Notes under the pieces: model-generated
Told to the model about the DNA's origin: nothing
The model's database searches: none
What the model saw: only the letters and a program-made list of their open reading frames with translations
Origin: a virus
Reading direction: 5' to 3' (one strand)
IMG/VR virus record: IMGVR_UViG_3300032092_000004
Location: 1 to 64,000 of that record
DNA: 64,000 nucleotides
Position numbers and translations under genes: made by a program
Part shown: one piece after another, positions 68-61,848 of the stretch
Position numbering within the stretch: position 1 is the first letter of the stretch
Layout: each line of letters opens with the position of its first letter

Positions 68-3000
68 ATGGCAACAAACAGTAAAGTTTTCGTTTCACCT
101 GGTGTTTATACTTCTGAAGTAGATTTGAGCTTTGTTGCTCAGAGCGTCGGGGTAACAACATTAGGTATCGTAGGTGAAACTTTGATAGGACCAGCTTTTG
201 AACCGATTTTTATTACAAATTTTGATGAGTTCCAAACAGTATTTGGAGGTACTTCACCAGAAAAATTTGTTAATACACAAATCCCAAAGTATGAAGCGGC
301 TTACATTGCAAAAGCATATCTACAACAATCTAATCAATTATTTGTAACAAGAATCTTAGGATTATCGGGTTACGATGCAGGACCATCTTGGTCAATAACC
401 ACAGTCGCTAACGTAAATCCATCAACTATTGATGTTTGGTGTTTAAGTTCCGTAACTGACCCAACAACTTGTGTTACAACATGTGTAACACCTAAAGAAC
501 TTACATTTACAGTTCCATTTACTGCTTGTACAAATTCAACAACAACAATAGGATTCCAAGCAAATTTCCCATCAATCATTCAAGATATAATCACAGAGCA
601 ATACGAAGAGTTTAACGGTAATACTTCTACATTAGAAACTCAAATTAATAATTTAATTTTTAATGTAATAACAAATAATAACCCTTATCTTGCGGAAGAT
701 GAACAAATTGCTTACTTTGGTTCTATTGCAACTAATGATTATAACACATTAAATGGTGCAGGATGGACTGCGGAAACAAACGTATTTAATGTTCCATCAG
801 TTTCTTTGGATGCTACTGATTTATTATCACCTTTAAATGACTCTTGGTATTACGCTTTATTTAGTAATACAGGTAATACAAATTACACAGGATATTCATT
901 CTCAACTTTGGTATCAGGTTTAACAGCTTATTATCCAAATCCAACACCTACACCTCAATCATCATCAACACCAACGCCCACACCATCGGCAGCAAATCCT
1001 TGTATTACACCGTCACCTTTTGTGTCACCAACACCTACACCTACACCTGTTAACATTGATTGTTATTCAGGAACTATTGTTGGTAAAATTTATTACTACA
1101 CAGGAACATCATATGTTGATTACGATAATGTTGTTGTTGCGACTTTAAGATCAAGAGGTATTGCAACTTATACAAACTCAACTAATCCAGCATACTCAGT
1201 AACTGCAACGACAGATGCTAGTTTAGATATGACAGGTAAATACGCAGGAGTTCTTAAAAACCCATACTTAACATTCGCAGTTAACTGTACTGATAAGTTT
1301 GGTCAAAACTTTACATTCGAAACTTCATTAACTCAAAATGATCCTGAGTATATTAGTAAAGTATTTGGAATTGCAAACTTCCAAAAACCAAGAATTGAAG
1401 TTCCTTTATTTAATGAGGAAGTATTCCAATCTTGGTTAAACTATTCTTGGAAAAAAGGATATGTTAGAGGTTTAAATCCAAACTTCATAGAATTAGACTC
1501 CGCTCAAAGTGGTGATCCTAACTCAATTGGTTGGTATTTGGATAGATATCAAACACCTAATTCACCTTGGGTTGTATCAGAATTAAGGGGTAATAAAGTT
1601 TACGACCTATTCAGATTCTACACAATTTCTGATGGTGATGGGGCAAATACATTGATTAAAGTTTCAATTATAAATCAAACTTATAACAACTTAACGTTTG
1701 ATGTATTAATTCGTGATTATTTTGATACAGATGCAAACCCTGTAGTTCTTGAGAAATTTACAAACTGTACGATGGATCCAGGACAAAACAACTTTATCGC
1801 AAATAAAGTTGGTACATTAGATGGAGAATACGCATTGAATTCTAAATACGTAATGGTTGAAATGAATGAGGATGCACCAATCGACGCACTTCCTTGTGGG
1901 TTCAACGGATTCAACTTTAGAAATTATGCGGGAGCTCAATCACCATTCCCAATTATTAAAGGTAAATATGACTTCCCTGGTGAAGTGATCTATAACCCAC
2001 CATTTGGTTTATCTTCAGGTAATGATGATGCATTAGTAAGCCCGGGAGATAATGTTAGAAGAACATACTTAGGTATATCTAATAGTTTAGGATGGGATGC
2101 CGCTTACTTCGAATATGTTGGTAAGAGAAATCCTAATAACACTTGTGATATTGATGGATTACCATTCAATTACAGATCGGCAGGTTTCCACATGGATGTA
2201 AACGCAAGTGGTTTAACAATCGGACCTGAGTTCTCAACAAGTGGTGACCCAAGATTTATCTGTGGTAACTCATCATTCATTGCAGAACCAGAACTTCCAA
2301 CAAACGCATACTATAGATTGTTCGCACGTAAATTTACATTCTTAGTACAAGGTGGATTTGACGGATGGGATATCTATAGAGAATGGAGAACTAACGAAGA
2401 CAGATTCCAAATCGGTAGATCAGGATTCCTATTCGGAGCTTGTCCATCTACAAGATACCCACAAGCAACAGGTTGGGGAGCATTTAAAGAAATTTCTTTA
2501 GGTGACGGAACTCAAAACTTCGCAAACACTGACTATTACGCATATTTGTTAGGTCAACAAACATTTGCAAACCCTGAAGCGGTTAACATTAACGTGTTTG
2601 TAACACCGGGTATTGATTATGTGAATAACAGTAACCTTGTTGAAGACGCAGTTAACATAATTGAATTTAACAGAGCTGACTCATTGTATGTTTGTACAAC
2701 ACCCGATATTGACTTATTCGTTCCAACAACAACAGGTGGTGACTATTTTATTTACCCGACTGAAGCGGTTGACAACTTAGAAAATACAGGAATTGACTCT
2801 AACTACACGGCCACTTATTATCCTTGGGTATTGACAAGAGATAGTGTAAACAATACACAAATCTACATCCCACCAACAGCTGAGGTGACAAGAAACTTAG
2901 CGTTGACAGACAACATCGCGTTCCCTTGGTTCGCAGCGGCGGGTTACACTCGTGGTATTGTTAACTGTATTAAAGCACGTAAGAAGTTGACACAAGAAGA

Positions 3001-3418
3001 TAGAGACATCCTTTACGTAGGTAGAATTAACCCAATCGCAACCTTCTCTGACGTAGGTACAGTAATTTGGGGTAACAAAACTCTACAAGTAAGAGAATCG
3101 GCTCTTGACAGAATCAACGTTAGAAGATTGTTGTTACAAGCTCGTAAATTGATTTCAGCGGTATCTGTAAGATTATTGTTTGAACAAAACGATTCACAAG
3201 TAAGACAAGACTTCTTAAATGCTGTTAACCCAATCTTAGATGCGATCAGAAGAGATCGTGGTTTATATGACTTCCGAGTTACAGTTTCTTCAGATCCTGA
3301 GGATTTAGATAGAAACCAAATGACAGGTAAGATTTATATCAAACCAACAAGATCACTTGAATTTATCGACATCACATTCTACATCACTCCAACAGGAGCA
3401 TCGTTTGAGAATATATAA
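68..3418 (+). CDS. Contractile tail sheath protein (T4 gp18-like) with a large inserted surface domain
   Basis: N-terminal FVSPGVYTSEVDLS and C-terminal ATYYPWV...PWFAAAGYTRG...INPI...WGNKTLQ...LDRINVRRLL...IKPTRSLEFIDITF are classic sheath signatures; lies upstream of the tube gene. Confidence 0.96.
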   Translation: MATNSKVFVSPGVYTSEVDLSFVAQSVGVTTLGIVGETLIGPAFEPIFITNFDEFQTVFGGTSPEKFVNTQIPKYEAAYIAKAYLQQSNQLFVTRILGLSGYDAGPSWSITTVANVNPSTIDVWCLSSVTDPTTCVTTCVTPKELTFTVPFTACTNSTTTIGFQANFPSIIQDIITEQYEEFNGNTSTLETQINNLIFNVITNNNPYLAEDEQIAYFGSIATNDYNTLNGAGWTAETNVFNVPSVSLDATDLLSPLNDSWYYALFSNTGNTNYTGYSFSTLVSGLTAYYPNPTPTPQSSSTPTPTPSAANPCITPSPFVSPTPTPTPVNIDCYSGTIVGKIYYYTGTSYVDYDNVVVATLRSRGIATYTNSTNPAYSVTATTDASLDMTGKYAGVLKNPYLTFAVNCTDKFGQNFTFETSLTQNDPEYISKVFGIANFQKPRIEVPLFNEEVFQSWLNYSWKKGYVRGLNPNFIELDSAQSGDPNSIGWYLDRYQTPNSPWVVSELRGNKVYDLFRFYTISDGDGANTLIKVSIINQTYNNLTFDVLIRDYFDTDANPVVLEKFTNCTMDPGQNNFIANKVGTLDGEYALNSKYVMVEMNEDAPIDALPCGFNGFNFRNYAGAQSPFPIIKGKYDFPGEVIYNPPFGLSSGNDDALVSPGDNVRRTYLGISNSLGWDAAYFEYVGKRNPNNTCDIDGLPFNYRSAGFHMDVNASGLTIGPEFSTSGDPRFICGNSSFIAEPELPTNAYYRLFARKFTFLVQGGFDGWDIYREWRTNEDRFQIGRSGFLFGACPSTRYPQATGWGAFKEISLGDGTQNFANTDYYAYLLGQQTFANPEAVNINVFVTPGIDYVNNSNLVEDAVNIIEFNRADSLYVCTTPDIDLFVPTTTGGDYFIYPTEAVDNLENTGIDSNYTATYYPWVLTRDSVNNTQIYIPPTAEVTRNLALTDNIAFPWFAAAGYTRGIVNCIKARKKLTQEDRDILYVGRINPIATFSDVGTVIWGNKTLQVRESALDRINVRRLLLQARKLISAVSVRLLFEQNDSQVRQDFLNAVNPILDAIRRDRGLYDFRVTVSSDPEDLDRNQMTGKIYIKPTRSLEFIDITFYITPTGASFENI
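935..1048 (+). repeat. Pro/Thr-rich mucin-like coding repeat in the sheath
   Basis: Encodes PNPTPTPQSSSTPTPTPSAANPCITPSPFVSPTPTPTP. Confidence 0.9.
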
Positions 3419-46036: not shown

Positions 46037-49023
46037 TGGCTATACAGAAGTTTACTTGTCCACCTCAAAGTAGTGCCGCCAATGAATTCTCAAATAATTT
46101 GGTTGGAGTTCAGTTAGTTACTGGAGGAGGTTTAACGCAAGCAAATTTTAACTTTACAACAAATATTTCTGAAAAGCAGAATAGAACATTTAATATTGGT
46201 ACGTTTTCAGATCCGATAAATCTTGAGAGTATAAACATCGATAATAATGTTGAAGCTGCCGAAATCTTAGCTAACAACTATAGAGTTTACCCAAATTATG
46301 ATTTATCACAAGTAACAAACTTTACTCAATATGGTTCCTTGGTTAAAAGATTTTCAGTTTCAATAACTAAGATAATCAACTTTTATCCTGCAGGATTAGA
46401 GGTTTCACCAAACACAAACAAGTTTATAACTCAAGAAACCGCATTTAATATTACTTACGATGCGGTTGAAAATGATACAACATTTGAAGTATTAATATCA
46501 TCAATTAGAAATCCATTTGATATTGATTACACTGTAAATGCTGAGACAAATATGATGTTTAATGAGATGGAAGTTTCATCTTTGAGAAACATGAAGTTGG
46601 AGTATAAAAAATATGCGTTAATTCTAAATGGTAATGAATATCCTGTTAACTATTTATACCCAACCACAAATGACTCGACAACATTAAAGTTAATTGTCGA
46701 TGGAAATCCATTTGGGGGTAATGCAATATCATATGATTATATAGTTATAAGACCAAACAACTATGAGGTTAACAGAGTTTTTAACCTTAAATTTGATCCC
46801 GTTGAAAATTTCCTACTAAATAGAAACATTAATCCACCATATACCGCAACTTTTACCGTTCCAAGAGAACAAGATGACGGTACATTTAAAATCACGACTG
46901 AACTTGCAACGTTTCCTAAATCAGGACTTTGGAACTTAGATATTGAATCACAAACATTTGATAACTACCTAACACAAATAAATGATTTTGCAATAAACCT
47001 TGATTCATATAATACTAACTTAGTTTCAAGATTTTTAACAACAGGTGCTTTAAAAGAGTTTGATACACCTGATCATAAATTTGAAAAACTTTTACAGATT
47101 TATGGTAGAAGTTTTGACGAAACTAAGGCTTTCATTTCGGCATTAGGTAATATTAATAGTGTTCATTATACTGTTAAGAATGATATACCGTCACAACTTT
47201 TAAAAAATTTAGCACAAACATTAGGTTGGGTAACAAATTTTTCACCTATATCTAATGAAGAATTGTTACAAGCAGTTTTTACGACACAACCAAATACTTT
47301 TCCTGGTTTACAAATCGGACCAACACCTGAAGAAATCAATTATCAATTTTATAGAAATTTGATTTTGAATTCTGCTTGGTTGTTTAAATCAAAAGGAACT
47401 AGAAAATCTATTGAATGTCTTTTAAGAATGGTTGGGGCACCTGAAGCCTTAATAGATTTTAACGAACATATTTATGTTGCTGATCAAAGAATAAACATGA
47501 GTGAGTTCAATCAACAATATTTACAATTATCAGGAGGGACTTTTCTACAAGAATATCCTGTATTAGAAACTAACAACACATATTCAATACAAGGAGTTCA
47601 ATATACTGGTTTTACCACAACATTTGCAAACGCAACTGTATTAACAACAAGGGAAGATTACCCCGTTGATGAATTTGGATGCCCAAAAATGCCAACACCA
47701 ACAGAAGAGTACTTTTTCCAAATTGGTGGGGGTTGGTTTGAATCAACACCTCAACACAGAATGCCAGAATTTGCAATCCCAACAAATCAAGTATTCACAG
47801 GTAATAATCCTAATTTCCAAACACAACTTTTACCTTTCAATTACGGTGAGGAATATTTGCAACTTTACAGAAATTTCCCTTATATGAATTTGGGGTATAA
47901 GATTAGAAGAGTTCAGGATAACAAAAAAAGTTGGAGTGATACGTCACCAACACAAAGAGTAAGTTTTGATGGTGGATTTAATGCTTATTATGAAGTTGGT
48001 GAAGAATGTTTAACATTGAATGTGAAAAATGTTGACATCATGATGAATCCTGCTCAAGGTTTGGTTTATGATGTTTGGACAATGTCTAGACAATATAATT
48101 ACCCAATACCTGAAGAAGGTTTATTCTACACTCCACCAACACCTTGTAATGTACCAAATCCATACCCAAGATATGGAGGAATAGATTGGACAACAATTAT
48201 TCCAAAACCAAAACAAAAAACTTTCTTTGAATTTGCTCAAACATTTTGGAGAAACATGGTTAACACAAGAAACCGTCAATATATTACTGATGGTAAAACT
48301 GGCGGTTACCCTACATTACAATCAATATATTGGAGATACTTAGAGTCTCAAACACAAGCAGGTGTACCAAACGATAATTTTACATACCAAACAATGATAG
48401 ACTATATTAATGGTATGGGTGACTATTGGATTAGAATGGTTGAACAAATGGTTCCTGCAACTACAATATGGAATACAGGTGTTAGATTAGAAAACTCTAT
48501 ATTCCATAGACAAAAATTTGTATGGAGAAGACAAGAAGGATGTAAGATTGTTCCTGTCCCTTGTAAACCTTGTTCTTTGGCAACACAATTGTTTGTATAT
48601 GATTGTCCTGTACAACAAGTGGTTTGTGGTCTTTATCCATGGAATAGTAACCCAACAATCACATCTATGGGTGCTGTATTGAATGATACTTTAGATACTT
48701 TTTATAGTCAAAATTCATTAAACGCAAATGACTGTTCACAAAACTCTGTCATAACTACTTGGAATGTAGATTTAAGAGTAAATGGGGTTATACTTGTGAT
48801 ATCACCATTCTATACAGGTATTGGACCATTTAACGTCCCTACTAACACAGAATGGGTGAATGCTTTAAGTGACACATTAAATAATTTACTAACCTCAGGG
48901 TATAGTTATAATATTGATGAGGATACTGAACAAATAACGGTGTTTAACAATAATTGTCAACCAAATTTTGATGACTTCCAAATAAACATAGGACTTGAGT
49001 TCGAAATATATTGTAACGGATAA
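46036..49023 (+). CDS. Baseplate wedge protein (T4 gp7 / P2 gpI-like)
   Basis: IPSQLLKNLAQTLGW...LILNSAWLFKSKGTRKSIECLLRMVG...MVEQMVPATT. Confidence 0.7.
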   Translation: MAIQKFTCPPQSSAANEFSNNLVGVQLVTGGGLTQANFNFTTNISEKQNRTFNIGTFSDPINLESINIDNNVEAAEILANNYRVYPNYDLSQVTNFTQYGSLVKRFSVSITKIINFYPAGLEVSPNTNKFITQETAFNITYDAVENDTTFEVLISSIRNPFDIDYTVNAETNMMFNEMEVSSLRNMKLEYKKYALILNGNEYPVNYLYPTTNDSTTLKLIVDGNPFGGNAISYDYIVIRPNNYEVNRVFNLKFDPVENFLLNRNINPPYTATFTVPREQDDGTFKITTELATFPKSGLWNLDIESQTFDNYLTQINDFAINLDSYNTNLVSRFLTTGALKEFDTPDHKFEKLLQIYGRSFDETKAFISALGNINSVHYTVKNDIPSQLLKNLAQTLGWVTNFSPISNEELLQAVFTTQPNTFPGLQIGPTPEEINYQFYRNLILNSAWLFKSKGTRKSIECLLRMVGAPEALIDFNEHIYVADQRINMSEFNQQYLQLSGGTFLQEYPVLETNNTYSIQGVQYTGFTTTFANATVLTTREDYPVDEFGCPKMPTPTEEYFFQIGGGWFESTPQHRMPEFAIPTNQVFTGNNPNFQTQLLPFNYGEEYLQLYRNFPYMNLGYKIRRVQDNKKSWSDTSPTQRVSFDGGFNAYYEVGEECLTLNVKNVDIMMNPAQGLVYDVWTMSRQYNYPIPEEGLFYTPPTPCNVPNPYPRYGGIDWTTIIPKPKQKTFFEFAQTFWRNMVNTRNRQYITDGKTGGYPTLQSIYWRYLESQTQAGVPNDNFTYQTMIDYINGMGDYWIRMVEQMVPATTIWNTGVRLENSIFHRQKFVWRRQEGCKIVPVPCKPCSLATQLFVYDCPVQQVVCGLYPWNSNPTITSMGAVLNDTLDTFYSQNSLNANDCSQNSVITTWNVDLRVNGVILVISPFYTGIGPFNVPTNTEWVNALSDTLNNLLTSGYSYNIDEDTEQITVFNNNCQPNFDDFQINIGLEFEIYCNG

Positions 49024-51215
49024 TGCCTTATATACAAATATATAATTATAGAGTCACTGGTGACTGTAGTAATACAAAAGTAGGTGCGGTCTCATTCAAC
49101 ATAACCGGAGATACGCCTAATTTTAGTGTCACAGATGCAACAGGGTTAGGATTACTACCATTGTCAGCTAACACCACATTTTATTCTGTTACGGGAATGT
49201 CTGGTGGTACTTATTATGCTACAGTTGCAGATGCGGGTACCACAAAAATTGTACAACCAATTTATATATCAACAGGTACTACCGCAACTATAGATTCTTC
49301 TAATACCACTTGTGGTCAAAATAATGGAACAATAACAGGTTTTACGTCTGGCGTTTATGGTCTTGTTTCTTTTAGTTTATACGATATAAGTAATAATTTA
49401 ATTACATCTGCAACAACATCAAATCCTTACTATGAATTCACATCTCTTTCTGCAGGAACTTATTATATAGTTGCAAACGATGGTGGTGGTTGTACAGGAA
49501 TAACAGCATCTGTAATATTAAATCCTTCATCTGGATTAACATACGGGGCATATGTTGTTGATGATGCTAGTTGTTTAGGTTCAGGTAGTGGTAAAATTTT
49601 CTTAACAGGATTAACACCTCCATTATCTGCTTATACAATAACTTGGAGTCCTAACGCTTTAGGTCAAACAGGATCAACAATAACAGGATTAACTTCGGGA
49701 AGTTACGTTGCAACAGTAACAAATCCAATTGGATGTACAACAAGTGAATCATTTACTGTTAACACTATACCACCATTAACGTCAGGTGGATTTATAACTA
49801 TAGCCCAACCATCTTGTTTTGCGAATGACGGTGAAGTAGAATTTATTGTGGTTGGTGGAACTGCTCCCTATTTTTTCAGCGGATCATCAGGTCAAGTTGA
49901 AATTACTTTTGATACTTCTGTAACATTTACAGGACTGTCTTCAGGTTTATATTCGTTTTTGGTTACCGATGCTGGTTTATGTACAATTTATGATTCAGTA
50001 AGTTTATTAACACCAAATTCATTTAGTACCGTTGCCGTCACAACAACTAATTCAACTTGTTCGGCAAATGATGGTAGCATTAATGTTTTAGTTGATGGTG
50101 GTCTTAGTAGTGCAACTAATTTACAGATCTCTGTGTCAGGAACTACAGGTATTAGTCAAATAGGATTATTCGGTAGTTCTAATGAGACATTCTATGGATT
50201 AGGTAGTGGAACATATAATGTAACAGTTGTGTCTGCAGGTTGTACTTATACCGCCTCTACTGTTATTAATTCGGTTAGTTTATATAGTGCGACTACTCAA
50301 GTAAATGGTACCACATGTGGATTAAATAATGGATCTTTAGTTGTAAGTGCGTCAACAGGAGGAACATTTCCATACACATATTCATTAACAGGACCAACTT
50401 ATAGTCCAAATACTGTAACAAGTTTATTTAACACATTCACAAATTTAGCTTATGGTAATTACACTCTAACAATACAAGATACGTCATCACCACCTTGTAT
50501 CCAAAGTTATCCTGTTTTTATACCAAATAGTCAGACCGTAAACTTCAACTTATATCCAAACCAACCTTTAAATGGTGATGATGGTTCTATCACTGCATTC
50601 ATTACTAGTGGTGAACCACCGTTTACTTTAACTTGGAGTGGTGGAACCGTAGGTTCTCAAACGGGAACTACAGTTACAGGTTTAACTACGGGTACATATA
50701 GTTTAACTGTAACAGACGCTAGTGGTTGTACACTTACAAAATACACAACATTAACGGGTACAAAAAAATATGTTAATTATTTGTACTATAATGTATGTGA
50801 TGATACTTTTACAGATAGTGGATTGGTAACTAAAAGAACAATTCGATCAATGTATTTAGAAGGGTTTAATGATCTAACTAGTGGTGACACAAACTGTATT
50901 ATAAATTCAGCGACTTTTGCAATAAGTGCGGAAGTTGGTGGTCAATCTGCTGAAACTATATTTTACACATCTTCAGGATCTACTGATTATCCAAATGATT
51001 TGTTATGGGCTGAAGCAATATCTACAATATTAAATGAGTTTGTAGGGATATCTGATGTAACAATAGATCTACCTTCAAATAGAATCACAATAAAAACAAA
51101 CTGTGAAGAAATTAGTAAAAATTGTGGTCCACAAACAATAAATCCATTACAAGATACTGAAATAAAAGTCAACTTGTTGATTGATTATGACATATCTTGT
51201 GTAAGTTGTAGTTAA
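49023..51215 (+). CDS. SprB-repeat (Ig-like) adhesin/fibre protein
   Basis: Tandem units CxxxxGxI...GGTxPYxYS...TGLxxGxYxxTVTDxxGC. Confidence 0.8.
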   Translation: MPYIQIYNYRVTGDCSNTKVGAVSFNITGDTPNFSVTDATGLGLLPLSANTTFYSVTGMSGGTYYATVADAGTTKIVQPIYISTGTTATIDSSNTTCGQNNGTITGFTSGVYGLVSFSLYDISNNLITSATTSNPYYEFTSLSAGTYYIVANDGGGCTGITASVILNPSSGLTYGAYVVDDASCLGSGSGKIFLTGLTPPLSAYTITWSPNALGQTGSTITGLTSGSYVATVTNPIGCTTSESFTVNTIPPLTSGGFITIAQPSCFANDGEVEFIVVGGTAPYFFSGSSGQVEITFDTSVTFTGLSSGLYSFLVTDAGLCTIYDSVSLLTPNSFSTVAVTTTNSTCSANDGSINVLVDGGLSSATNLQISVSGTTGISQIGLFGSSNETFYGLGSGTYNVTVVSAGCTYTASTVINSVSLYSATTQVNGTTCGLNNGSLVVSASTGGTFPYTYSLTGPTYSPNTVTSLFNTFTNLAYGNYTLTIQDTSSPPCIQSYPVFIPNSQTVNFNLYPNQPLNGDDGSITAFITSGEPPFTLTWSGGTVGSQTGTTVTGLTTGTYSLTVTDASGCTLTKYTTLTGTKKYVNYLYYNVCDDTFTDSGLVTKRTIRSMYLEGFNDLTSGDTNCIINSATFAISAEVGGQSAETIFYTSSGSTDYPNDLLWAEAISTILNEFVGISDVTIDLPSNRITIKTNCEEISKNCGPQTINPLQDTEIKVNLLIDYDISCVSCS

Positions 51216-51535: not shown

Positions 51536-54199
51536 ATGGCATTATTAACGGATCAAATACAAGCAACTGGAGTTTCTTTAACGGACTTAATTCACATAGT
51601 CATCACCGGTGACACATCTCAAAATCCTGCGGGATCTTCTTATAAAGCAACAATCCAACAAGTGGCTCGAGTAATATCAGGTACAACAGGCACTAGTGGT
51701 ACTTCCGGATCAAGGGGTTCGTCAGGGACAAGTGGTCAAAGTGGGATTGGGTTATTTTTACCATTATCAGGAGGTACGGTTACGGGTAATACAATATTTA
51801 ATGCGGGTTTAAGTGCAATAACAATATCGGCAACAACTTATCAAAACTTACCAAGTGATGTAATAATTATTGACTCAACACAGATCCAATCAGGATTTAC
51901 AGGTGGAGTCTTATTTCAAAGTTCAGCAAGTACGGTAAGTCAAACTACTGGTTTTACTTGGAATAATACAAATAAAAGATTGGGAATTGGGATTAACTCC
52001 CCTCTCTATGATTTAGATGTCAACGGGTCTATCTATCAAAGAACCGGAGAATTATTAATTACATCCACAGGTGGTGTCAACAAAGAAGGACCATTTATTG
52101 CATCAAGTGGTGGTGACGATTTAATCTCCGACAGAAAAATCCAATTAGGAATTTCAGACAATTCAACTGTACCTGTCGGTATTAATATGTTTGTAACTAA
52201 CAATTCATTCCCACCAAGTTACATGAACTTTAGAGTAAACAATGCAGATCTAGTTAGAATGTCTGGTAGTTCTGTTGAAATTAGCGGTCTTACATATACA
52301 AGTGGTATAACCTCAACATCTAAAATCACATTTCCACAGATAACAATTAATAGTGGGTATACAGTTACTGATAATGACTATATGGTTGACGTTACAGGTG
52401 GTACTTTTACTGTAAACTTACCAAGTGCTGTAGGAAGAAAGGGTAGATTATTAGTTATTAAAAATAATGGTGGAGGTGCGGTTACCGTAGATCCATTTGG
52501 TAGTGAAACCATCGATGGAAAATTATTCGTAATTTTAGGAGAAACTAACTCAATACAATTATCAAGTAATGGAACAGAATGGGTTGCTTTGGGGTATAAT
52601 ATCTCAACAGTAAACTCATCAACGGGTGTTTTTGAATTTACAGGTATTACAACCGCATCCCCAACAACATTTAATGTTGCTCCTGTAAAAGGATGGATAG
52701 TAGACGACACAACAAATCCTTTATCACCACAATTATATTATGTTGTGTATACAGGTGGTACAAATACCGCAACTTATGTTACAACAAGTACCGAAACTTG
52801 GATTTATTTAACGAGCGGAGGAACAATTAGTCAATCAAATATTCCTTTAACGGAACAAGAAAGAAGACAAAATATATTTTTAGGTAAATTGGGTCACGCT
52901 AATAAGACATCAATTATTAATTCTTTTTCTCAACCTGACTTTGTTTTATCTCCATTATCACAACTTCGTGATATGTTTACACCAATTAATTTAATTAACG
53001 GTGGAATAACCCCATCACCTAACGGTGTAAATTTAAGTTTTAACACAAGTGCGGAATACCTATATGGTTTAGGTATAAATTTCGCAAACGACATATTAAG
53101 TCCTGATTCGTTATATGTTTCAGGAACCGCTCCTTGTACGTTCCAATATAGAACACAAACAGGTGGAACCGCATCAAACACAACATTTATTGACCCAACA
53201 AAATATGATGTTGGTGGTACTGTAACTTCTATACCAGGAACTAAAGCAACTAACCAAAGAATTTATTTGGTACAAAACGGTGTTTTTAGAGTTCAGTACG
53301 GACAAACAGTTTATTCAACACTAACTCAAGCAGTTGCGGGTATTTCAACAGAACAGTATGTTGAGTTTTCAAACTTTCAAACTAACGGTATTTTAATTGG
53401 TATTTTATCAGTTTTAAGCTCATGTACTGATTTAAGTGATACTTCTAAAGCATTATTTTTCCAAGCCTCAAAATTTGGTGAATCAACAGGGGCCGCTGGT
53501 GGTACACCAACAACAAACTTACAACAAGCATACAACAACTCATCAGAACCTGAAATTTTAACTAACTCAACATTAGGAGCATTTTCAATTAAAAATGGTA
53601 CGGGTAATCCTGACATCTCAACAAATTTGTTTGAAGGTATTGGGTCTTCAGGTGTTTTAACTTCGTCAATCACTGCGAGAGGTGTTATCACGGGGACTAG
53701 CATTAGTACAAATGGTACTATTAGTGGTGGTGCGGTAACAGGTACAACAATGTTGGCATCTACGTTCAATCTTGCTGGATCACAAATAGAATCGGCGTGG
53801 GAATCATATAGTGTATCTTGGACATCGTCAGGTACTAATCCAGTAATTGGTAATGGAACTATAGAAGGTTGGTATAAAGTAATTGGTAAAACATGTTTTG
53901 TTAGAGGAAATATTGTGATGGGGTCAACAACAACATTTGGTACGGGAGAATGGTATGTATCGATGCCGGTTACTGCTGTAAATGCTGATGCCATATTAAT
54001 GACGGTAACTTTATTAGATAATGGTAGTGCTTGGTATAATGCCACAATGGCCGGAGCAAGAGCAGGATTTAACACTAAAGCCCCTATGCAATATGTAAAT
54101 ATTTTAAACGGTACTGCAAATGATGTAAATGCAACTCAACCATTTACTTGGACAACTAGTGATAGATTTGTATGGAACGGAAGTTATGAAATTGCATAG
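51536..54199 (+). CDS. Tail fibre protein with a short G-X-[ST] collagen-like repeat
   Basis: GTTGTSGTSGSRGSSGTSGQSG, FLPLSGGTVTG, RLGIGINSPLYDLDVNG, TVNLPSA...IKN...ETIDG, C-terminal GWYKVIGKTCFVR receptor-binding-like domain. Confidence 0.8.
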   Translation: MALLTDQIQATGVSLTDLIHIVITGDTSQNPAGSSYKATIQQVARVISGTTGTSGTSGSRGSSGTSGQSGIGLFLPLSGGTVTGNTIFNAGLSAITISATTYQNLPSDVIIIDSTQIQSGFTGGVLFQSSASTVSQTTGFTWNNTNKRLGIGINSPLYDLDVNGSIYQRTGELLITSTGGVNKEGPFIASSGGDDLISDRKIQLGISDNSTVPVGINMFVTNNSFPPSYMNFRVNNADLVRMSGSSVEISGLTYTSGITSTSKITFPQITINSGYTVTDNDYMVDVTGGTFTVNLPSAVGRKGRLLVIKNNGGGAVTVDPFGSETIDGKLFVILGETNSIQLSSNGTEWVALGYNISTVNSSTGVFEFTGITTASPTTFNVAPVKGWIVDDTTNPLSPQLYYVVYTGGTNTATYVTTSTETWIYLTSGGTISQSNIPLTEQERRQNIFLGKLGHANKTSIINSFSQPDFVLSPLSQLRDMFTPINLINGGITPSPNGVNLSFNTSAEYLYGLGINFANDILSPDSLYVSGTAPCTFQYRTQTGGTASNTTFIDPTKYDVGGTVTSIPGTKATNQRIYLVQNGVFRVQYGQTVYSTLTQAVAGISTEQYVEFSNFQTNGILIGILSVLSSCTDLSDTSKALFFQASKFGESTGAAGGTPTTNLQQAYNNSSEPEILTNSTLGAFSIKNGTGNPDISTNLFEGIGSSGVLTSSITARGVITGTSISTNGTISGGAVTGTTMLASTFNLAGSQIESAWESYSVSWTSSGTNPVIGNGTIEGWYKVIGKTCFVRGNIVMGSTTTFGTGEWYVSMPVTAVNADAILMTVTLLDNGSAWYNATMAGARAGFNTKAPMQYVNILNGTANDVNATQPFTWTTSDRFVWNGSYEIA

Positions 54200-54253: not shown

Positions 54254-55234
54254 ATGGAAAACATATTATTTGTCTCAGCACAACCTGACGTTCCCTACTT
54301 TATATGGCAAATAAAATTGTATGTTCACAATTTTATCGAAAAAGGAATTAACCCAAATCAAATACATGTGGTTTTAGGGTTAGTTAATAATGTGAACACA
54401 CCATCTAAAGAATCAGAACAACTTAAAGAGTTAGGTGTTAATGTTCATTACTTTGTTGATGAAAGATCTAAAAAACATTACATACCAAGTATTAAACCAT
54501 ACCTCATCTCAAAGTGGATCCAATCAAATACTGATTATGGAAAATTATTTTTTCTTCACGATGCTGATATTATTTTTAAAGAACTACCAAGTTTTAATCG
54601 GTTGTTAGACGATGAGGTTAGTTATCTATCTGATACGATAGGTTATATCGGATACAACTATATTATGGATTGTTGTGAGAGATATGAACAACAACACCCC
54701 AATTCAGATAAAGGACAACTTATAAGTGAAATGGCAGATGTAATTGGTGTTGATGTTGAAAAAATTAAACTCAATCAAGAAAATTCAGGTGGAGGACAAT
54801 ACCTAATTAAAAATACAAATTGTGAATTGTGGGATAAAATCTATAGAGACTCCACAAATATGTATAATAAAATGTTGGATTACCAAAAAAGATTCCCAAT
54901 AAATTCAGGTCAAATACAATTTTGGACCGCAGAGATGTGGTCATTATTATGGAATTTATGGTTGTATGGATTTAAAACTAAAGTAACTGAAGAACTTGAT
55001 TTTTCTTGGGCGACAGACACCATAGAAACTTATGAAAAAAAACCAATACTTCATATGGCTGGTGTAACAGATAACCTTAAAACTACAAAATTTTATAAAG
55101 GTGATTACATTAATATAGACCCAATTGTTAAGTTGAGAGATAACCCCAATCATTTTGATTACATAGATAAAAATAGTTCGACAATAAAATATATCGATAA
55201 TATGAAATCTTACATTCAAAAATACAACATATGA
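54254..55234 (+). CDS. GT-A glycosyltransferase resembling plant HPAT/SGT1 protein O-glycosyltransferases (GT95/GT96)
   Basis: PYFIWQIKLYVHNF, YIPSIKPYLISKW, FLHDADIIF (DxD), GGGQYLI, WTAEMWS, ILHMAG. Confidence 0.7.
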   Translation: MENILFVSAQPDVPYFIWQIKLYVHNFIEKGINPNQIHVVLGLVNNVNTPSKESEQLKELGVNVHYFVDERSKKHYIPSIKPYLISKWIQSNTDYGKLFFLHDADIIFKELPSFNRLLDDEVSYLSDTIGYIGYNYIMDCCERYEQQHPNSDKGQLISEMADVIGVDVEKIKLNQENSGGGQYLIKNTNCELWDKIYRDSTNMYNKMLDYQKRFPINSGQIQFWTAEMWSLLWNLWLYGFKTKVTEELDFSWATDTIETYEKKPILHMAGVTDNLKTTKFYKGDYINIDPIVKLRDNPNHFDYIDKNSSTIKYIDNMKSYIQKYNI

Positions 55235-55251: not shown

Positions 55252-57327
55252 ATGGTAGAAAATTGTTATATATTATATTCTTGTGACGGAAGTTACAAAC
55301 CGATCATTTCAAACCTTAGTGGGTTAAGCGCTTATTCAACGTCATACATTTCTGTAAATTCTATAGATTCAGTAACAATAGATGAAACTTGTTTTTATGT
55401 GTTAAGTTTAGGTGAAATAGACTGTACACCAACAAACGAAATAACAATTTCAACAGGGATAACATGCAATTGTCAATGTTATTGTTATTTTATAAGATCT
55501 GTGACTCAAACAACTGATGTTACATATGTTAATTGTAATGATGAAATTATTGTTGATACTATCCAAGAGGGATTAACTTACAATATTTGTAGTAAAGTTT
55601 ATCCACAGTTTGACACTCAAGTGCAAATACCAATTAAATTAACTGACATTTGTGTTGATAACCAATGTCCACCAACAATCCCAACTGTAAAACCAACAAA
55701 CGAATGTGATGTTATTACAATATTCCCTATGGGGGTTACTTGTATAACACAACAACCTTCATCAGAAAGAGATTTTGATGGAGCGGTTGAATTAGTTGTA
55801 ACAGGAGGAACGCCACCTTACACTATATTTTGGGAAGTTGGAAGTTTTGCACCAGCACTAACTAATCTTGGAGTTGGTGAATATTCAGCATCTGTTACGG
55901 ATTATTATGGTGATTTTTCGGCATTTACAACTTGTGTTTTAACTGCGGAGACTGTAACATATTCAGGTATGTGTTTTGTATTAACAGGTGTAGTTGAAGA
56001 TCAGTTAGTATATATTAATTCAGAAGTAAAAGGGTTTAAAAATACAAAACCATACTTTGAAATACAATATGGTGTAAATCTTTTGGGTTACGTTTTTTGG
56101 GACCCAAGTTCAGAAAAATGGTTTTTTTGTCAAACGCTAGATTGTCAATTATCCCCATATAACACACTTTTATTACCTGATGGATTATATCCTACAGGAA
56201 CGACAGGTGATTGGCAAGTTATTTCAGACTCACCATATTTAATTGTTGAATCAACAATTGGCAATTGCTCACCACCGGTAATACCTAAAGAAGATTATAC
56301 ACTCTGTGCAACAATAGTTTCAAGGTCAACAAAACCTGGAATCCCAACTATGGCCTCACAAGTAGAACTTGATCCAAGTATTAATATAAATGGAGAACCT
56401 AGTTGGTCTTCATCAACAGGTCAATATGTTGTGTATTGGGATAGTGGATCGACACCATCACAATGGGTTATGACAGGATTTACTAGTCCATCAACATTAG
56501 TTACAAATAATGACCCATCATATCCACCAGTAAGTAATTGGCAAGTTTATGGTGGATATGATATATACAGTGTTGATATTGCTCAAGGATTATGTACTGA
56601 TTCGTACATTGTAGTGGTTTCTGCGGTAGTTAACGACGCTTTATGTGGAAATAATGGTAGTATTACTATTAGTGCTTCTGGAGGAGATGCACCGTACCAA
56701 TACTCAATAGATGGAGGATTATCATATCAACCATCACCAATATTCAGTAATGTTCTTCCAGGGACTTATATAGTATTTGCTAAAGACGTAAATACAACAA
56801 TAGGTTCATTTGGACCTGTGGTGGTTAATAACATCCCAACCACCATTTATAACGTAACGATGAACGTAAATTACAATAATAATACTTTTACGTTAACTGC
56901 ACCATCTTTACCTGTTGGATCTACATTAACTGTTGATGTTGTTATGTCGTCAATATTTAACTATTACCCACAAAGTTTGAGCCCAATACCTTCATATAAT
57001 AATTTTACAACTATTAGTGGTGTTGGACTTATGACAAATACAAATACAACAGTTAATACTTATGCATTAGGTGGACCTTGTAGTGTTCCTGGACCACTAA
57101 ACAATACACAAATTAGTAAAACCTATTTGAACACCTTAACATTAACTAGTGGTCAAGTTGTTACAGGTAGTACTACAAATAGTATCATCAACTTTCCTGC
57201 ATTTGAGTGTTCAAACGCAGTTGGATATTATCAATTATCTATTACAAACGCAATAATAAATAACTGTCAATGTTGTGAGACAAACCTAATTAATTCGGTT
57301 CCACCTGTACCACAATCAGTTTTATAA
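55252..57327 (+). CDS. Cys-rich SprB-repeat structural/adhesin protein
   Basis: DGAVELVVTGGTPPYTIFW...LTNLGVGEYSASVTD and CGNNGSITISASGGDAPYQYSIDGG...FSNVLPGTYIVFAKD; many Cys. Confidence 0.75.
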   Translation: MVENCYILYSCDGSYKPIISNLSGLSAYSTSYISVNSIDSVTIDETCFYVLSLGEIDCTPTNEITISTGITCNCQCYCYFIRSVTQTTDVTYVNCNDEIIVDTIQEGLTYNICSKVYPQFDTQVQIPIKLTDICVDNQCPPTIPTVKPTNECDVITIFPMGVTCITQQPSSERDFDGAVELVVTGGTPPYTIFWEVGSFAPALTNLGVGEYSASVTDYYGDFSAFTTCVLTAETVTYSGMCFVLTGVVEDQLVYINSEVKGFKNTKPYFEIQYGVNLLGYVFWDPSSEKWFFCQTLDCQLSPYNTLLLPDGLYPTGTTGDWQVISDSPYLIVESTIGNCSPPVIPKEDYTLCATIVSRSTKPGIPTMASQVELDPSININGEPSWSSSTGQYVVYWDSGSTPSQWVMTGFTSPSTLVTNNDPSYPPVSNWQVYGGYDIYSVDIAQGLCTDSYIVVVSAVVNDALCGNNGSITISASGGDAPYQYSIDGGLSYQPSPIFSNVLPGTYIVFAKDVNTTIGSFGPVVVNNIPTTIYNVTMNVNYNNNTFTLTAPSLPVGSTLTVDVVMSSIFNYYPQSLSPIPSYNNFTTISGVGLMTNTNTTVNTYALGGPCSVPGPLNNTQISKTYLNTLTLTSGQVVTGSTTNSIINFPAFECSNAVGYYQLSITNAIINNCQCCETNLINSVPPVPQSVL

Positions 57328-57353: not shown

Positions 57354-59858
57354 ATGGCTTACATAATTAAAAATACATCTGGTTTAGTTAACACTCGTGT
57401 TACAGATACGGGTAGACAAAAAATGTCCGAAGGCAACTTTAATATTTTTTACTTTGCGGTAGGGGATAGTGAAGTTTCATATAACGAGTTACCATCTACT
57501 TACAATCAGACTAATACCGTTGTTTTAGAACCACAATTCAATGCACAAAACAGTTCAGGTGTTCCTGAATCAAATAGACAGTACATTAAATATCCATATT
57601 TAGTTGATGAAGGACAAACAAATATTTATGGTATACCTTTTATGGATTCAGGTATTGATTCTGTTTACAATAGAGCTGCTATGAGAGGGTTCTTCACAGG
57701 AAACACAACCGCTTCTACTGTAGATTGGAAAGCGTTAGTTAATAACACATATGTCATTACACCAAATTATGTGGTTAACATGTCCACTTTGAACGGAACA
57801 AACCAAATAAGTGTACAAAGAATGGACTGTAATGTTCAAAATGATAATACACCAAATGTTGGAGATTTTATAACAATATATTATGATGGAAGAGCAGAGA
57901 CCGATTGTTCTTGTAGTAATTTTCCTACACCAACTCCGACACCTTCGTTATACAGTACACCAACTCCGACACCCACACCAACAAGTACACTTTCAATACC
58001 TTGTGCTTCTCCAACACCAACACCTTCACCAACACACACACCATGTTTAACACCAACACCAAGTGCTCAATGTCCATTACCACCACCACCTGATTGTTTA
58101 AAAGATGTAGTAAGTTGTTTTTCAATTTTAACTTATAGAATTGTTGAAGTTTGTGGTAGTGTTTTAACGTTAGACAGAGATACACCTGATTTTACAAATT
58201 TATCAATTGATTGTTGGGCGAGAACATTAATTTATCCACCACAAATGGTTCCTTTATATGACAGTTTTACACCTGAACCACATTGGAATAAAAGTGTAAT
58301 CGACTTTGAATCAGTTTGTGATACTGATCAGTTTGATGTTAAAATATGGAATATGAATATTCCTTGGACCGAGAGTCCTGCTGGTTTGGCATCCGCTCAA
58401 TTCCAAGACTACACAAAATTTGGTTCTATTAACTACATAGGACAAAAAGAATATTTTGGATATAATTCATCTGATGGTCAAACATCTACTGATGATGTAT
58501 ATTACTACAATTCATTCGGCGAAAAAATTGTAGTAGCACCTGAAGAACAAAAGGCAATTGCAATTATCCACTATACTAATCAAACTATCGATTTCTTTTA
58601 TGGTGAAAAATTTGCGTTAGAACCTTACGACACACAAAACCCTGATAACACTCAAGGTCAAGCGAGAAACTTTAAGTTACATATGCCAACAATAATGTGG
58701 CATAAAAATCCTGAATGTTGTTTTGGGCAAACTTTTTGGGTGGATCCTCCAGGATTTGACAATCAAAATTTATTCCAAGTTCAATATACAAAGTCTAAAA
58801 TTTCACAACAAATGAATCAACCTGGACTTAGATATTATAATCTTTGGGATACATTTGCACAACCAAACGGTCTACCAAGTAGGGTAGGTAAAGTTTACCC
58901 TGACTCAAAACTAATTGTTATTGATGATGAAGAATTAGTAGCTGCTCTATCATATAAATCAAATAGAAACTGGACTTTACCGGCACCACAAGTATCTTTA
59001 ATTACACCAAACACATGTGGGACTTCAAATACTACAGGTGTTTTAACAGGAGGAGGAGAGACACTTTGGGTAACTTATAGACTATCAAACACAAACGCAT
59101 TTACAAATTCATTACATAGTAATTATTACACAAGTGTTGTTGGAACTGAGAATGTCTGTTCACCTGAAACACCTAAGAATGTTGCAGTTAGATTTGGTGG
59201 AGATTTCCCTTGTTTAGTACAACCAGGTTTCTCACCAACAACTACAACGACTACATTCAATCCTGTTACCACATCAACAACTACAATTAATCCACCATAC
59301 ACAACAACTACAACAACTCAGTGTCCTGTTTGTACTGTTCCTGCTGGATTCTATGCACAACAGTTCCAAGTACTGGCTCAAAAAACATTATCGGGGGTGA
59401 GACCTGATCCGGCTCAATGGAGATTAATTGATTTTACAAGTCAAATTGAACAATACTTCATTAATGGTTATGTAACCCAAGAATCTTTAACCGCAACAAC
59501 TTTTGTTGTAACTGCGGAAAATTATGGAAGTGCACCAATATACAATCTAAACGACTATATAAGTTTGGTTCCTAATGGTGCGACAGGACAACAATTGAAT
59601 TTTGGTGATGAGTACTATTTCTACGGTAATTTAGAAACCGACATCCAAGCCACATTATATGAGATGAAATATAAAATTAACTTAAGTGATAATGAATTCT
59701 TAGTTTCTCAAAACCCAACTTGGACCCAAGGAACCCCATCTTATGTTACCGAAATTGCACTTTTAGATGAAAATAAAGATGTTTTAGTTATGTCTAAAAT
59801 GCAATCACCAATATTAAGACAAGGAATCCAACAGTACGTTATTAAATTAGATTTCTAA
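57354..59858 (+). CDS. Tail-collar/fibre-attachment-like protein with PT and poly-T linkers
   Basis: N-terminal VTDTGRQKMSEG...YFAVGDSE and C-terminal YVTEIALLDENKDVLVMSKMQSPILR resemble the two halves of the P2 gpH-type N-terminal domain. Confidence 0.6.
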   Translation: MAYIIKNTSGLVNTRVTDTGRQKMSEGNFNIFYFAVGDSEVSYNELPSTYNQTNTVVLEPQFNAQNSSGVPESNRQYIKYPYLVDEGQTNIYGIPFMDSGIDSVYNRAAMRGFFTGNTTASTVDWKALVNNTYVITPNYVVNMSTLNGTNQISVQRMDCNVQNDNTPNVGDFITIYYDGRAETDCSCSNFPTPTPTPSLYSTPTPTPTPTSTLSIPCASPTPTPSPTHTPCLTPTPSAQCPLPPPPDCLKDVVSCFSILTYRIVEVCGSVLTLDRDTPDFTNLSIDCWARTLIYPPQMVPLYDSFTPEPHWNKSVIDFESVCDTDQFDVKIWNMNIPWTESPAGLASAQFQDYTKFGSINYIGQKEYFGYNSSDGQTSTDDVYYYNSFGEKIVVAPEEQKAIAIIHYTNQTIDFFYGEKFALEPYDTQNPDNTQGQARNFKLHMPTIMWHKNPECCFGQTFWVDPPGFDNQNLFQVQYTKSKISQQMNQPGLRYYNLWDTFAQPNGLPSRVGKVYPDSKLIVIDDEELVAALSYKSNRNWTLPAPQVSLITPNTCGTSNTTGVLTGGGETLWVTYRLSNTNAFTNSLHSNYYTSVVGTENVCSPETPKNVAVRFGGDFPCLVQPGFSPTTTTTTFNPVTTSTTTINPPYTTTTTTQCPVCTVPAGFYAQQFQVLAQKTLSGVRPDPAQWRLIDFTSQIEQYFINGYVTQESLTATTFVVTAENYGSAPIYNLNDYISLVPNGATGQQLNFGDEYYFYGNLETDIQATLYEMKYKINLSDNEFLVSQNPTWTQGTPSYVTEIALLDENKDVLVMSKMQSPILRQGIQQYVIKLDF
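57924..58091 (+). repeat. Pro/Thr-rich mucin/extensin-like coding repeat
   Basis: Encodes PTPTPTPSLYSTPTPTPTPTSTLSIPCASPTPTPSPTHTPCLTPTPSAQCPLPPPP. Confidence 0.9.
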
Positions 59859-59912: not shown

Positions 59913-60521
59913 ATGGCAAAAAATTTAAAAAACTCCCCCAAAGTTTTGGGTCTTGATATTTCCACAAAAACCATAGGGTGGGCATTGTTTGATATCAAAA
60001 CACAAGAACTACTTGAATTAACTCATATCTCACCAAGACCAAAAATGGAGAAAGATGAGAATGATAAACTAAAAGAGTTATTATTAAAATCAGAAATATT
60101 TGCTGAAAAACTTAAACAATATAAAGATTTAGGGATTGTTAGAATTATTATAGAGGAACCACTTTTAAATTCTAATAACATTTATACCATACAAACACTA
60201 TTAAGATTTAATAGTTTTGTATTTAAAGAAATCTATAATATAATGGGAATAGTTCCTGAATTTATATCGACATATAACTCAAGAAAATTTGCCTTTCCTG
60301 AGTTAGTCCAAGAAAACGATAAAAAGAAATTTGTGTTATTTGGTGGATTACCAAAAGACGTTGATAAAAAGTTGATAATTTGGGAAAAGGTTGCAAAAAG
60401 AGAACCACAGATTACTTGGCATTATACAAAAAACAATACATTAAAGAAAGAGAATTTTGATCAAACAGATGCGTACACTTGTGTTTTAGGATTTATGAGA
60501 TCAAAAGAAATTTGGAAATAA
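59913..60521 (+). CDS. ruvC: RuvC-like Holliday junction resolvase
   Basis: VLGLDISTKTIGWA, IIIEEP, FDQTDAY catalytic acidic residues. Confidence 0.8.
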   Translation: MAKNLKNSPKVLGLDISTKTIGWALFDIKTQELLELTHISPRPKMEKDENDKLKELLLKSEIFAEKLKQYKDLGIVRIIIEEPLLNSNNIYTIQTLLRFNSFVFKEIYNIMGIVPEFISTYNSRKFAFPELVQENDKKKFVLFGGLPKDVDKKLIIWEKVAKREPQITWHYTKNNTLKKENFDQTDAYTCVLGFMRSKEIWK

Positions 60522-60579: not shown

Positions 60580-61848
60580 TTAACAAATTACACCTGAATC
60601 TGTTGCTGTAAAGTTTGGAGAAGAAGATGTTGGAATTGTGATAGAACAAATGTAATCGGATGTGTAACCACCTAACCCACCTAAAGATATCGTTCCATCA
60701 CACTCATAGTAATTATATTTAATTTGACTAACACTATTGTTTTCAACATACCATTTTGTAAGGATACAAGGACTTGATGTTGGAGTTGGTGTTGGTGTTT
60801 GTGTTGGTGAAGGAGTTGGTGTTTGTGTTAAATTAGGAAGACAATCTAAACACGCACCATCTATTCTTGAACCAACTTCAAAAGTTAACGTAATGTCATC
60901 CACACCACTTATGTTTTCAAATAAACCTTCATAAACAACACAACAACCTTGACCATTAATAATTGCGTTATATACGTAACCTTCTTTTGGACTTGTGTTT
61001 CCTGAAACTAATATTAAATCTGAAGAGAAATAATCAAAACCAGTAAAGCAATCTTTAAATTTCTTACTATTAGCACATTGTAATATTTCATTAAATGTGT
61101 TAAATATAACTTCACCACTAAAATTACAAGGTCTTGTTATTTGTGGTGTAGGTGTTGGGGTTGGTGTCATTGTTGGTGTCGGAGAATATGATACCGTAAT
61201 CGCTGACGCACTTATAAAAGATCCACCACATATATTTGTTGATGAAGGTGTTGGAGTTGGTGTAGGTGTTTGAGTTGGTGTTGCCGATATTGAAGGGGAA
61301 GGGGTGACTAAACAATCAAAAATTGCGGTGAAATCAAATGTTGCACACGGATTAACAGTTGTGGTAGTTGTAACACAAATTCCTGTATATGCGACAGTGT
61401 CGTCAAAATCAGGACAATCTGACGTACTTCCAAATGGACCAAACTGATCACATGGGCCACCTAATGTTTGAGACAAACACCATCTTGTTTCACCTGTTGA
61501 GTAAAACATAAAATATCCTGTGGTTTGTCCCGTAAAATAAGATTGACCCAGATATCTTCCTCCTGCTAATTGGTATGTGTCATCATAATTTGTGTCATTC
61601 TCAACACAAAAAAACTGAGGACATGTACAACCTGAAATACCGGTAATAGTTCCTGAAACAACATTATATACATTAATACCATTAGAATAATAAGATGTTA
61701 ATGCTGGTGTTCCAGTACATCCTGAGTTTAAATAAACTACATAACCTATTGTTAATCCGCTACCATAAAGTGTGGTACTCAAAGAACCACCACACGAAAT
61801 ATAAGGATCCGAAGCAGAGGCAAATAAACCTAAATTACTACAAGCCAT
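60580..61848 (-). CDS. Cys-rich, PT-repeat protein; putative virion-surface protein
   Basis: Three (PT)n tracts, a TTTTT tract and many Cys; composition matches the + strand structural proteins. Confidence 0.75.
   Translation of the reverse strand: MACSNLGLFASASDPYISCGGSLSTTLYGSGLTIGYVVYLNSGCTGTPALTSYYSNGINVYNVVSGTITGISGCTCPQFFCVENDTNYDDTYQLAGGRYLGQSYFTGQTTGYFMFYSTGETRWCLSQTLGGPCDQFGPFGSTSDCPDFDDTVAYTGICVTTTTTVNPCATFDFTAIFDCLVTPSPSISATPTQTPTPTPTPSSTNICGGSFISASAITVSYSPTPTMTPTPTPTPQITRPCNFSGEVIFNTFNEILQCANSKKFKDCFTGFDYFSSDLILVSGNTSPKEGYVYNAIINGQGCCVVYEGLFENISGVDDITLTFEVGSRIDGACLDCLPNLTQTPTPSPTQTPTPTPTSSPCILTKWYVENNSVSQIKYNYYECDGTISLGGLGGYTSDYICSITIPTSSSPNFTATDSGVIC

Follow-up and report, generated by a model that had tools for sequence, protein, structure and literature searches.

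What would a sugar-transferring enzyme do among the tail-fibre genes of a bacterial virus? This question is raised by the window analysed here, that is, the first 64 kb (64,000 nucleotides) of the 153-kb IMG/VR contig IMGVR_UViG_3300032092_000004, whose completeness is estimated at 49%. It contains the gene of a 326-residue glycosyltransferase (GT) flanked by two fibre or adhesin genes, an arrangement noticed in a first-pass annotation of the sequence and in agreement with the open reading frame (ORF), the tail-fibre PHROGs and the SprB repeats found here. The GT probably attaches sugars to Thr/Pro-rich stretches of virion proteins. Two lines of evidence carry this reading: the GT-A fold predicted for the enzyme, and the co-occurrence of its gene, across unrelated phages, with threonine-rich tags on virion proteins. 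The proposal of the first-pass annotation that the phage glycosylates its own virion proteins on Ser/Thr is supported, the glycosylation itself and its acceptor being conjectural.

54254..55234, + strand: GT-A glycosyltransferase (PHROG 4417), ATG start, 326 amino acids (aa), predicted to be soluble; DxD motif formed by D103-A-D105, H267 invariant

Sequence comparisons place the GT in a large family. PHROG 4417, its only profile match (E=7e-67, residues 6-319 on positions 3-290 of the 293 of the profile), carries no assigned function. Homologs of similar length number 1219 in a set of 5.8 billion proteins, the family forms 836 clusters in the representative library, and homologs are encoded in 77 phage genome records (tblastn, E<=1e-5). 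Searches of Pfam (E<=0.1), Glyco_transf_8 included, and of NCBIfam gave no match with the GT protein, and sequence and profile searches of the chains of the Protein Data Bank (PDB) returned nothing meaningful. In the latter, matches to TAL-effector repeats were spurious and a GNPTAB/Stealth match (E 0.62) was not significant.

The fold was predicted with AlphaFold. The single-sequence model was unusable (pLDDT 41) and a model based on an alignment of 57 family members (pLDDT 97.2, pTM 0.94) was used instead. It has the GT-A fold, in the form of a single Rossmann-like alpha/beta/alpha domain where a predicted strand at residues 98-101 is followed by H-D103-A-D105, and it has hundreds of GT-A structural matches. 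In the search against solved representatives, the best matches were retaining enzymes of the GT8/GT24 type: glycogenin (Z 15.2), the Skp1 alpha-galactosyltransferase (Z 14.6), LgtC (Z 14.4), the catalytic domain of UGGT (Z 14.3), WbbM (Z 14.1) and GlyE (Z 13.9). The capsid-glycosylating A64R protein of PBCV-1 followed at Z 11.4. The GT resembles the GT8-type enzymes (Z 13.9-15.2) over 213-243 aligned residues, with a root-mean-square deviation of 3.3-4.0, and has the same DxD ... His layout; several of these enzymes (glycogenin, Skp1 GalT, GlyE, UGGT) have proteins as their substrates. It differs from them by an identity of 7-12%, a Foldseek template-modelling (TM) score by query of 0.40-0.47, about 90 GT residues left uncovered and the lack of any Pfam GT8 match.

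The first-pass annotation had gone further and likened the GT to two plant enzymes, hydroxyproline O-arabinosyltransferase (HPAT, GT95) and SGT1 (GT96), which are retaining GT-A enzymes acting on extended Pro/Ser-rich peptides. The six ordered motifs behind this comparison are all found in the translation, in the same order. The resemblance to HPAT also stands at the level of structure. Among predicted structures, the named family that comes closest is represented by a green-algal cluster of the ESM Atlas, 99% of which is assigned to PF23452 (HPAT), with a TM score of 0.72 by query over 291 residues, that is, the same fold and the same domain extent; no solved GT8 structure comes near this score. 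Higher values in the viral structure library are confined to members of the family, and the divergent LP65 Orf49 is found at 0.71; HPAT is therefore as close to the GT as the outliers of its own family. In addition, the language-model neighbours of the GT include a viral sister cluster with HPAT hits in 10% of its members. Membership of the HPAT family, in contrast, did not survive the comparison. The Pfam HPAT model gave no match with the GT protein and reaches, at E~0.09, no more than 2 of the 57 aligned members, so the likeness is structural and not one of family. No solved HPAT or SGT1 structure was present among the structural matches. The phage enzyme further differs from HPAT by the absence of a membrane anchor and by its likely acceptor, Thr instead of Hyp (hydroxyproline) or Ser. 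Our reading is that the GT would belong to a distinct family within the GT8-like retaining GT-A group, remotely related to the HPAT-type enzymes.

The fold bears directly on a quite different function, namely the glycosylation of phage DNA on a hydroxylated or hydroxymethylated base as a protection against restriction. Many phage GTs act on DNA (PMC13326640), and a gene of the thymidylate synthase family and a nucleotide diphosphate (NDP)-sugar dehydratase gene are located about 60 kb from the GT. The characterised DNA arabinosyltransferases, however, are GT-B enzymes of the GT4-like type (PMC13326640) and were rejected as relatives of the GT, whose predicted fold is GT-A. The 369-aa thymidylate synthase (contig 119069-120178) scores 370 bits against an NCBIfam equivalog cut-off of 325 and is an ordinary enzyme, so that a DNA target is unsupported. 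Moreover, homologs of the GT are found in phiFL-type phages, which have integrase-bearing relatives in their genus, and hypermodified DNA would be unexpected in temperate phages. The GT is also positioned in structural modules and not in those of nucleotide metabolism. Taken with the fold, these observations make a DNA-modifying role very improbable. A ClpP-type protease gene follows the thymidylate synthase gene (L007:16429-17154).

The conservation pattern speaks for a working enzyme. In the 57-sequence alignment, D105, H267, K282 and G180 are invariant, whereas D103, Q182 and Q222 are conserved in at least 90% of the sequences; residues of the D103/D105/H267 type may bind the metal and the nucleotide, judging from their conservation. 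Such invariance of the DxD, the His and other active-site-type residues in diverse members is hard to reconcile with a catalytically inert protein that would have kept the GT fold as a structural or glycan-binding component of the virion. That possibility owes something to the former annotation of phiFL2B gp49 as a 'major tail protein' and to the constant location of the GT gene within structural modules. In TPWB06 and PLE3, the annotated major tail protein is nevertheless a separate gene, and in many relatives the GT domain is fused to other catalytic GT domains, which makes an inert role extremely improbable. These partners are GT2, GT6, GT25, PF11397 GlcNAc-T or O-FucT domains, in fusions of 500-1400 residues, and they fit a role of the GT in glycan assembly. 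One contig of GCA_039208045.1 (L229:26-6084) encodes a 1369-aa protein in which O-FucT, PF11397 GlcNAc-T, discoidin and this GT domain are joined; its gene adjoins a PLOD-type GT gene, in a locus that looks giant-virus- or eukaryote-type. No transmembrane or hydrophobic segment was found in the GT protein, which should therefore be soluble and act in the cytoplasm, where virions assemble.

The position of the gene in other phages leads to the second line of evidence. In ten phage lineages the GT homolog adjoins structural genes. In phiFL2B, phiCTP1, TPWB06 and CHPC971 its immediate predecessor is the major tail protein gene, annotated or inferred as such, and the chaperones and the tape measure come next; in VPE25, R3.3, 4995_1 and PLE3 the immediate predecessor is the major capsid gene. 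The Herelleviridae phages 521B and LP65 have the homolog behind the gene of a structural protein that is Ig-like or proven by mass spectrometry. The capsid and tail-tube proteins encoded next to the GT in the Gram-positive phages end in C-terminal poly-threonine tails, and a single tag can be common to both proteins of a phage: PLE3 has two copies of ...TTTTTTTSK, CHPC971 has two of ...TTTTTTTTRHD, and R3.3 has two endings in ...SHA. Directly upstream of the GT homolog of Lactobacillus phage Bacchae (L004:5643-5990) lies the gene of a 115-aa protein composed of 45% threonine, with TTTVKPTTTTTS-type repeats; by its composition, this protein would be an extreme candidate acceptor.

This association was quantified with a criterion of at least 7 Thr in a 10-residue window. 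Fourteen GT-positive loci of 13-21 kb were compared with six siphophages of the same host genera (phiFL3A, phiFL4A, phiEf11, A2, Lc-Nu and TP901-1), which were declared as controls before inspection and were all verified to be GT-negative. Thr runs were found in 12 of the 14 GT-positive loci, mostly at the C-terminus of capsid and tail proteins, and in none of the six GT-negative whole genomes (334 ORFs; Fisher one-sided p=7.2e-4). The contrast is best seen between homologous proteins. The major capsid proteins of PLE3 and phiEf11 are 58% identical over 335 residues and diverge only at their end, which reads ...PTTTTTTTSK in the GT-positive phage and ...LPDSKK in the other. Four further pairs behave alike: the capsid proteins of R3.3 and phiFL4A, the tail proteins of PLE3 and TP901-1 and those of PLE3 and phiEf11, and the tail proteins of PT1-4 and A2.

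The reverse approach, in which IMG/VR was scanned for nine consecutive ACN codons, returned 80 loci, 63 of them with an in-frame run of at least 8 Thr. The GT family is present in 5 of these poly-Thr loci, and in all 5 the GT lies immediately downstream of the poly-Thr ORF. If a generous rate of 0.2% per locus is assumed as background, at least 5 GT loci would arise by chance with P<1e-6. A comparable layout is seen for a GT2-fused relative (P0173) in a T4-like phage, which comes directly after three genes with S/T tracts of 18-58 residues and before genes without tracts. The GT thus co-occurs strongly with Thr/Pro-rich virion proteins across unrelated phages; the first-pass annotation had proposed to look for such a co-occurrence among related ones. 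PHROG 4417, as a remote relative of the plant enzymes acting on extensins, more likely than not defines a tag-and-glycosylate system widespread in tailed phages, in which a short poly-Thr or (PT)n tag would receive O-glycans from a co-encoded enzyme. Its span would, with a similar degree of assurance, include siphophages, both temperate and lytic, that infect Enterococcus, Lactobacillus, Lactococcus, Staphylococcus and Clostridium, as well as the Herelleviridae and the aquatic jumbo phages.

In the phage under study the tracts take another form, that of internal (PT)n linkers rather than poly-Thr. The genes concerned are the following, the slot letters referring to the cassette described below.

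68..3418, + strand: tail sheath, 1116 aa, major repeated virion protein and candidate acceptor; conserved sheath core at aa 833-1114
49023..51215, + strand: SprB-repeat fibre/adhesin-like protein, slot B; Pfam SprB repeats, no PT tracts here but PT in many relatives
51536..54199, + strand: tail-fibre protein, slot D, directly upstream of the GT; PHROGs 16641 and 5668
55252..57327, + strand: SprB-repeat fibre/adhesin-like protein, slot E, directly downstream of the GT; SprB repeats, PT tracts in many relatives
57354..59858, + strand: 834-aa protein, slot F, candidate acceptor; (PT)n tract and T-run
60580..61848, - strand: 422-aa protein without family assignment, slot H, candidate acceptor; three (PT)n tracts

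The slot F protein contains a 41-residue (PT)n tract at aa 191-231 (nucleotides 57924-58046) and a T-run at aa 629-640 (nucleotides 59238-59273), and the slot H protein has its (PT)n tracts at aa 188-206, 220-236 and 341-362. In the tail sheath, the (PT)n tracts are located at aa 290-327 (nucleotides 935-1048), inside a large N-terminal insertion and outside the core. This insertion places about 800 residues ahead of the conserved core, and PT linkers flank parts of it. The first-pass annotation had placed PT and poly-T tracts in the neighbouring virion proteins; they are real in the products of 57354 and 60580 and in the sheath, and absent from the two immediate neighbours of the GT.

The same organization was examined in 80 relatives (59-94% identity). 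The place of the GT in the cassette A-B-(C-D)-GT-E-F-G-H is conserved among them; PT tracts are found again in B, E, F and H, those of slot F being present in the large majority of the loci. The fibre gene of slot D is swapped or resized among close relatives, from ~180 to 1724 aa, and is sometimes absent, while the flanking genes are constant; slot D looks like a host-range cassette. As a separate observation, the motif [ST]-[GA]-x-[TS] occurs 166 times in structural ORFs of the window (43928-45103, 49023-51215, 51536-54199, 55252-57327 and others) for 67.6 expected, a 2.5-fold excess over composition-shuffled sequences, and 37 times in non-structural ORFs for 40.2 expected. SprB or collagen-like internal repeats may explain this excess; on sequence grounds, the motif could also be a second acceptor motif.

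The proline content of these linkers recalls the plant enzymes, and the GT could in principle act exactly like HPAT, on hydroxyproline formed in the (PT)n tracts by prolyl hydroxylation. HPAT is the nearest named family by predicted structure and the tracts of this phage are indeed Pro-rich. The 2-oxoglutarate/Fe(II) oxygenase family PF13640 was, however, not found in the 153-kb contig, which represents ~49% of the genome, while control genomes gave matches; since the contig is only about half of the genome, the absence of a prolyl hydroxylase is not proven. Thr/Ser is favoured over Hyp because no such hydroxylase was found. Furthermore, the tags of the Gram-positive phages are near-pure poly-Thr with little or no proline. 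The Hyp alternative that the first-pass annotation had kept in reserve is accordingly left unsupported, and we consider an HPAT-type reaction very doubtful.

Besides the hydroxylase, the same annotation had suggested a search for sugar genes; such genes do exist elsewhere on the contig. A GT cluster at contig 136663-144850, outside the window, comprises an RgpF-like gene (rhamnan synthesis), a putative rhamnosyltransferase-like gene and five GT2 genes, and is interrupted by lysozyme and UvrC-like GIY-YIG nuclease genes. A short-chain dehydrogenase/reductase resembling dTDP-glucose 4,6-dehydratase is encoded at contig 115762-116709; it scores 306 bits and does not reach the equivalog cut-off, set at 365. 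No NDP-sugar pyrophosphorylase (PF00483) was found in the 153-kb contig, a weak negative for a contig of about half of the genome. The cluster at 136.6-144.9 kb could serve either to lengthen a glycan of the virion or to modify the envelope of the host.

This last point is the core of another explanation, in which the GT would alter an envelope glycan of the host (O-antigen, capsule, teichoic acid or a rhamnan-type polymer), for instance to block superinfection or to help release, the Thr tracts being mere linkers. Phage GTs that alter the serotype of the host are well known (reviewed in PMC12619734); the RgpF-like, rhamnosyltransferase-like, GT2 and dTDP-glucose-4,6-dehydratase-like genes of the contig would suit such a role, and the polysaccharide enzymes WbbM and LgtC are among the structural matches. 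Still, the GT lies inside late structural operons, beside capsid and tail genes, in many unrelated phages and has no membrane segment, and a second GT was not seen in the structural-module stretches around the GT of the 36-41-kb siphophages. The GT also tracks the poly-Thr tags, matched homolog pairs included, an association that a host-directed activity leaves unexplained. Modification of the host envelope is for these reasons considered unlikely.

Several observations weigh against the glycosylation of virion proteins itself. The evidence on the acceptor is wholly correlative and comes from comparative genomics. The GT-positive Herelleviridae loci 521B and LP65 have no Thr run at the threshold used, and 58 of the 63 poly-Thr loci of IMG/VR lack this GT family within the short locus, so that the poly-Thr tag is not exclusive to it. 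The GT-positive lineages are partly related, PT1-4 and TPWB06 sharing ...TTTTTTTTP and CHPC971 and LT985583 sharing ...RHD, and the control genomes were few and chosen by the analyst. In the phage under study, long PT or poly-T tracts are missing from this copy of the proteins on either side of the GT (slots D and E); the nearest tracts are at least 2 genes away from the GT and that of the sheath is 51 kb upstream. Finally, linkers of the PT type are widespread as flexible spacers and may carry no modification at all.

What the analysis establishes is the gene, its fold, its conserved residues of catalytic type, its place in the genome and its co-occurrence with Thr-rich tags. The following scheme is the one that we infer for the acceptor, the donor sugar, the stereochemistry and the biological benefit. 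The GT would be a soluble cytoplasmic GT-A enzyme, probably retaining and metal-dependent through D103-x-D105 and H267. It would move a sugar from a nucleotide sugar to the hydroxyl group of Thr, and perhaps Ser, its targets being freshly synthesized virion proteins at tracts that are extended, of low complexity and rich in Thr/Pro. The acceptors in the jumbo myophage would be the (PT)n linkers located in the sheath insertion and in the fibre-cassette proteins 57354 and 60580; those in the small Gram-positive siphophages would be the short poly-Thr tags with which the major capsid and tail-tube proteins end. The RgpF-like, rhamnosyltransferase-like and five GT2 enzymes of the 136.6-144.9 kb cluster could then lengthen the first sugar. 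Exposed parts of the particle would in this way be covered by a mucin-like glycan sleeve, which may provide stiffening, protease resistance, shielding or adhesion.

The genomic setting of the GT is probably that of a late structural gene. The window has a G+C content of ~33% and encodes a tail sheath, a tail tube, UvsX, a DnaB-type helicase, a ribonucleotide reductase and a primase, and contigs carrying relatives reach 318 kb. Because of this gene content and of the size of these contigs, the source is a jumbo aquatic myophage with a genome of ~300 kb. Its host can only be guessed: the SprB repeats and the closest isolate, Chryseobacterium phage MA9V-3, would suggest Bacteroidota. A megablast search of 22 kb against phage records gave no match. 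The GT is embedded in a long co-directional block that starts with baseplate-wedge genes at 33369 and 33834, continues with very large ORFs and extends to 59858; the strand opposite the GT ORF is closed by many stops. The sequence TATTTAT precedes 5 of the 15 starts of the baseplate/fibre module by 14-26 nucleotides (at approximately 33355, 35729, 45105, 51521 and 55236), for an expectation of ~0.03 per 80-nucleotide upstream region, and is probably a late promoter element. The slot D fibre gene has one 15 nucleotides upstream. Since the GT gene has no TATTTAT of its own and no terminator was predicted between the slot D gene and the GT, it is probably transcribed by read-through with the late genes. 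The fibre block ends with a RuvC-like resolvase gene (59913-60521), and a terminator with a 13-bp stem at 60545-60574 is common to this gene and to the convergent PT-rich gene 60580-61848. At the other end of the window, the tail sheath is directly followed (3504-7070) by a 1188-aa protein with ~19 DUF5122 beta-propeller repeats (E 1e-279).

Among phages, glycosylation of the particle has so far been demonstrated in mycobacteriophages alone; there it protects the virions against antibodies, and it was regarded as rare in other phages. According to Freeman et al. (2023), as summarised in PMC12619734, these phages encode GTs and carry O-glycans on the C-termini of their capsid and tail-tube subunits. 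The situation described here is alike in that the GT is phage-encoded and in that the Gram-positive phages are tagged on the C-termini of the same two proteins. It differs by the poly-Thr nature of the tag, by the (PT)n linkers that the jumbo phage has inside its sheath and fibre-like proteins, and by a much wider distribution. The enzyme family is also different, as no Mycobacterium phage is present among the 77 phage records with a GT homolog (tblastn, E<=1e-5). A second parallel is provided by A64R of the chlorovirus PBCV-1 and by the GTs acting on giant-virus capsids and fibrils, which are virus-encoded cytoplasmic GT-A enzymes glycosylating virion proteins, and the multi-GT fusion relatives of the phage GT look giant-virus-like. 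The structural match to A64R is, however, much weaker than those to the GT8 enzymes or HPAT; the glycans of chloroviruses are N-linked at atypical sequons. Literature searches returned no paper tying this GT family, or poly-Thr tags in phages, to glycosylation, and the link between the GT and the tag looks undescribed in the searchable literature.

If this reading is true, O-glycosylation of the virion would be a widespread and common trait of phages, readable from the genome as a GT gene accompanied by a poly-Thr tag. It would cover phages of therapeutic or dairy interest (Enterococcus VPE25-like, staphylococcal Sextaecvirus, Lactobacillus and Lactococcus phages) as well as abundant aquatic jumbo phages. 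It would thus bear on the immunogenicity and clearance of therapeutic phages, on the stability of the particles and on their adherence to mucus or surfaces, and also on the interpretation of cryo-electron microscopy and mass spectrometry data of tail and capsid proteins. The combination of a short tag and one enzyme might serve as a simple tool for site-directed O-glycosylation in bacteria. Finally, a lineage of enzymes familiar elsewhere from the biology of the plant cell wall would gain, with the GT family, a branch in bacterial viruses.

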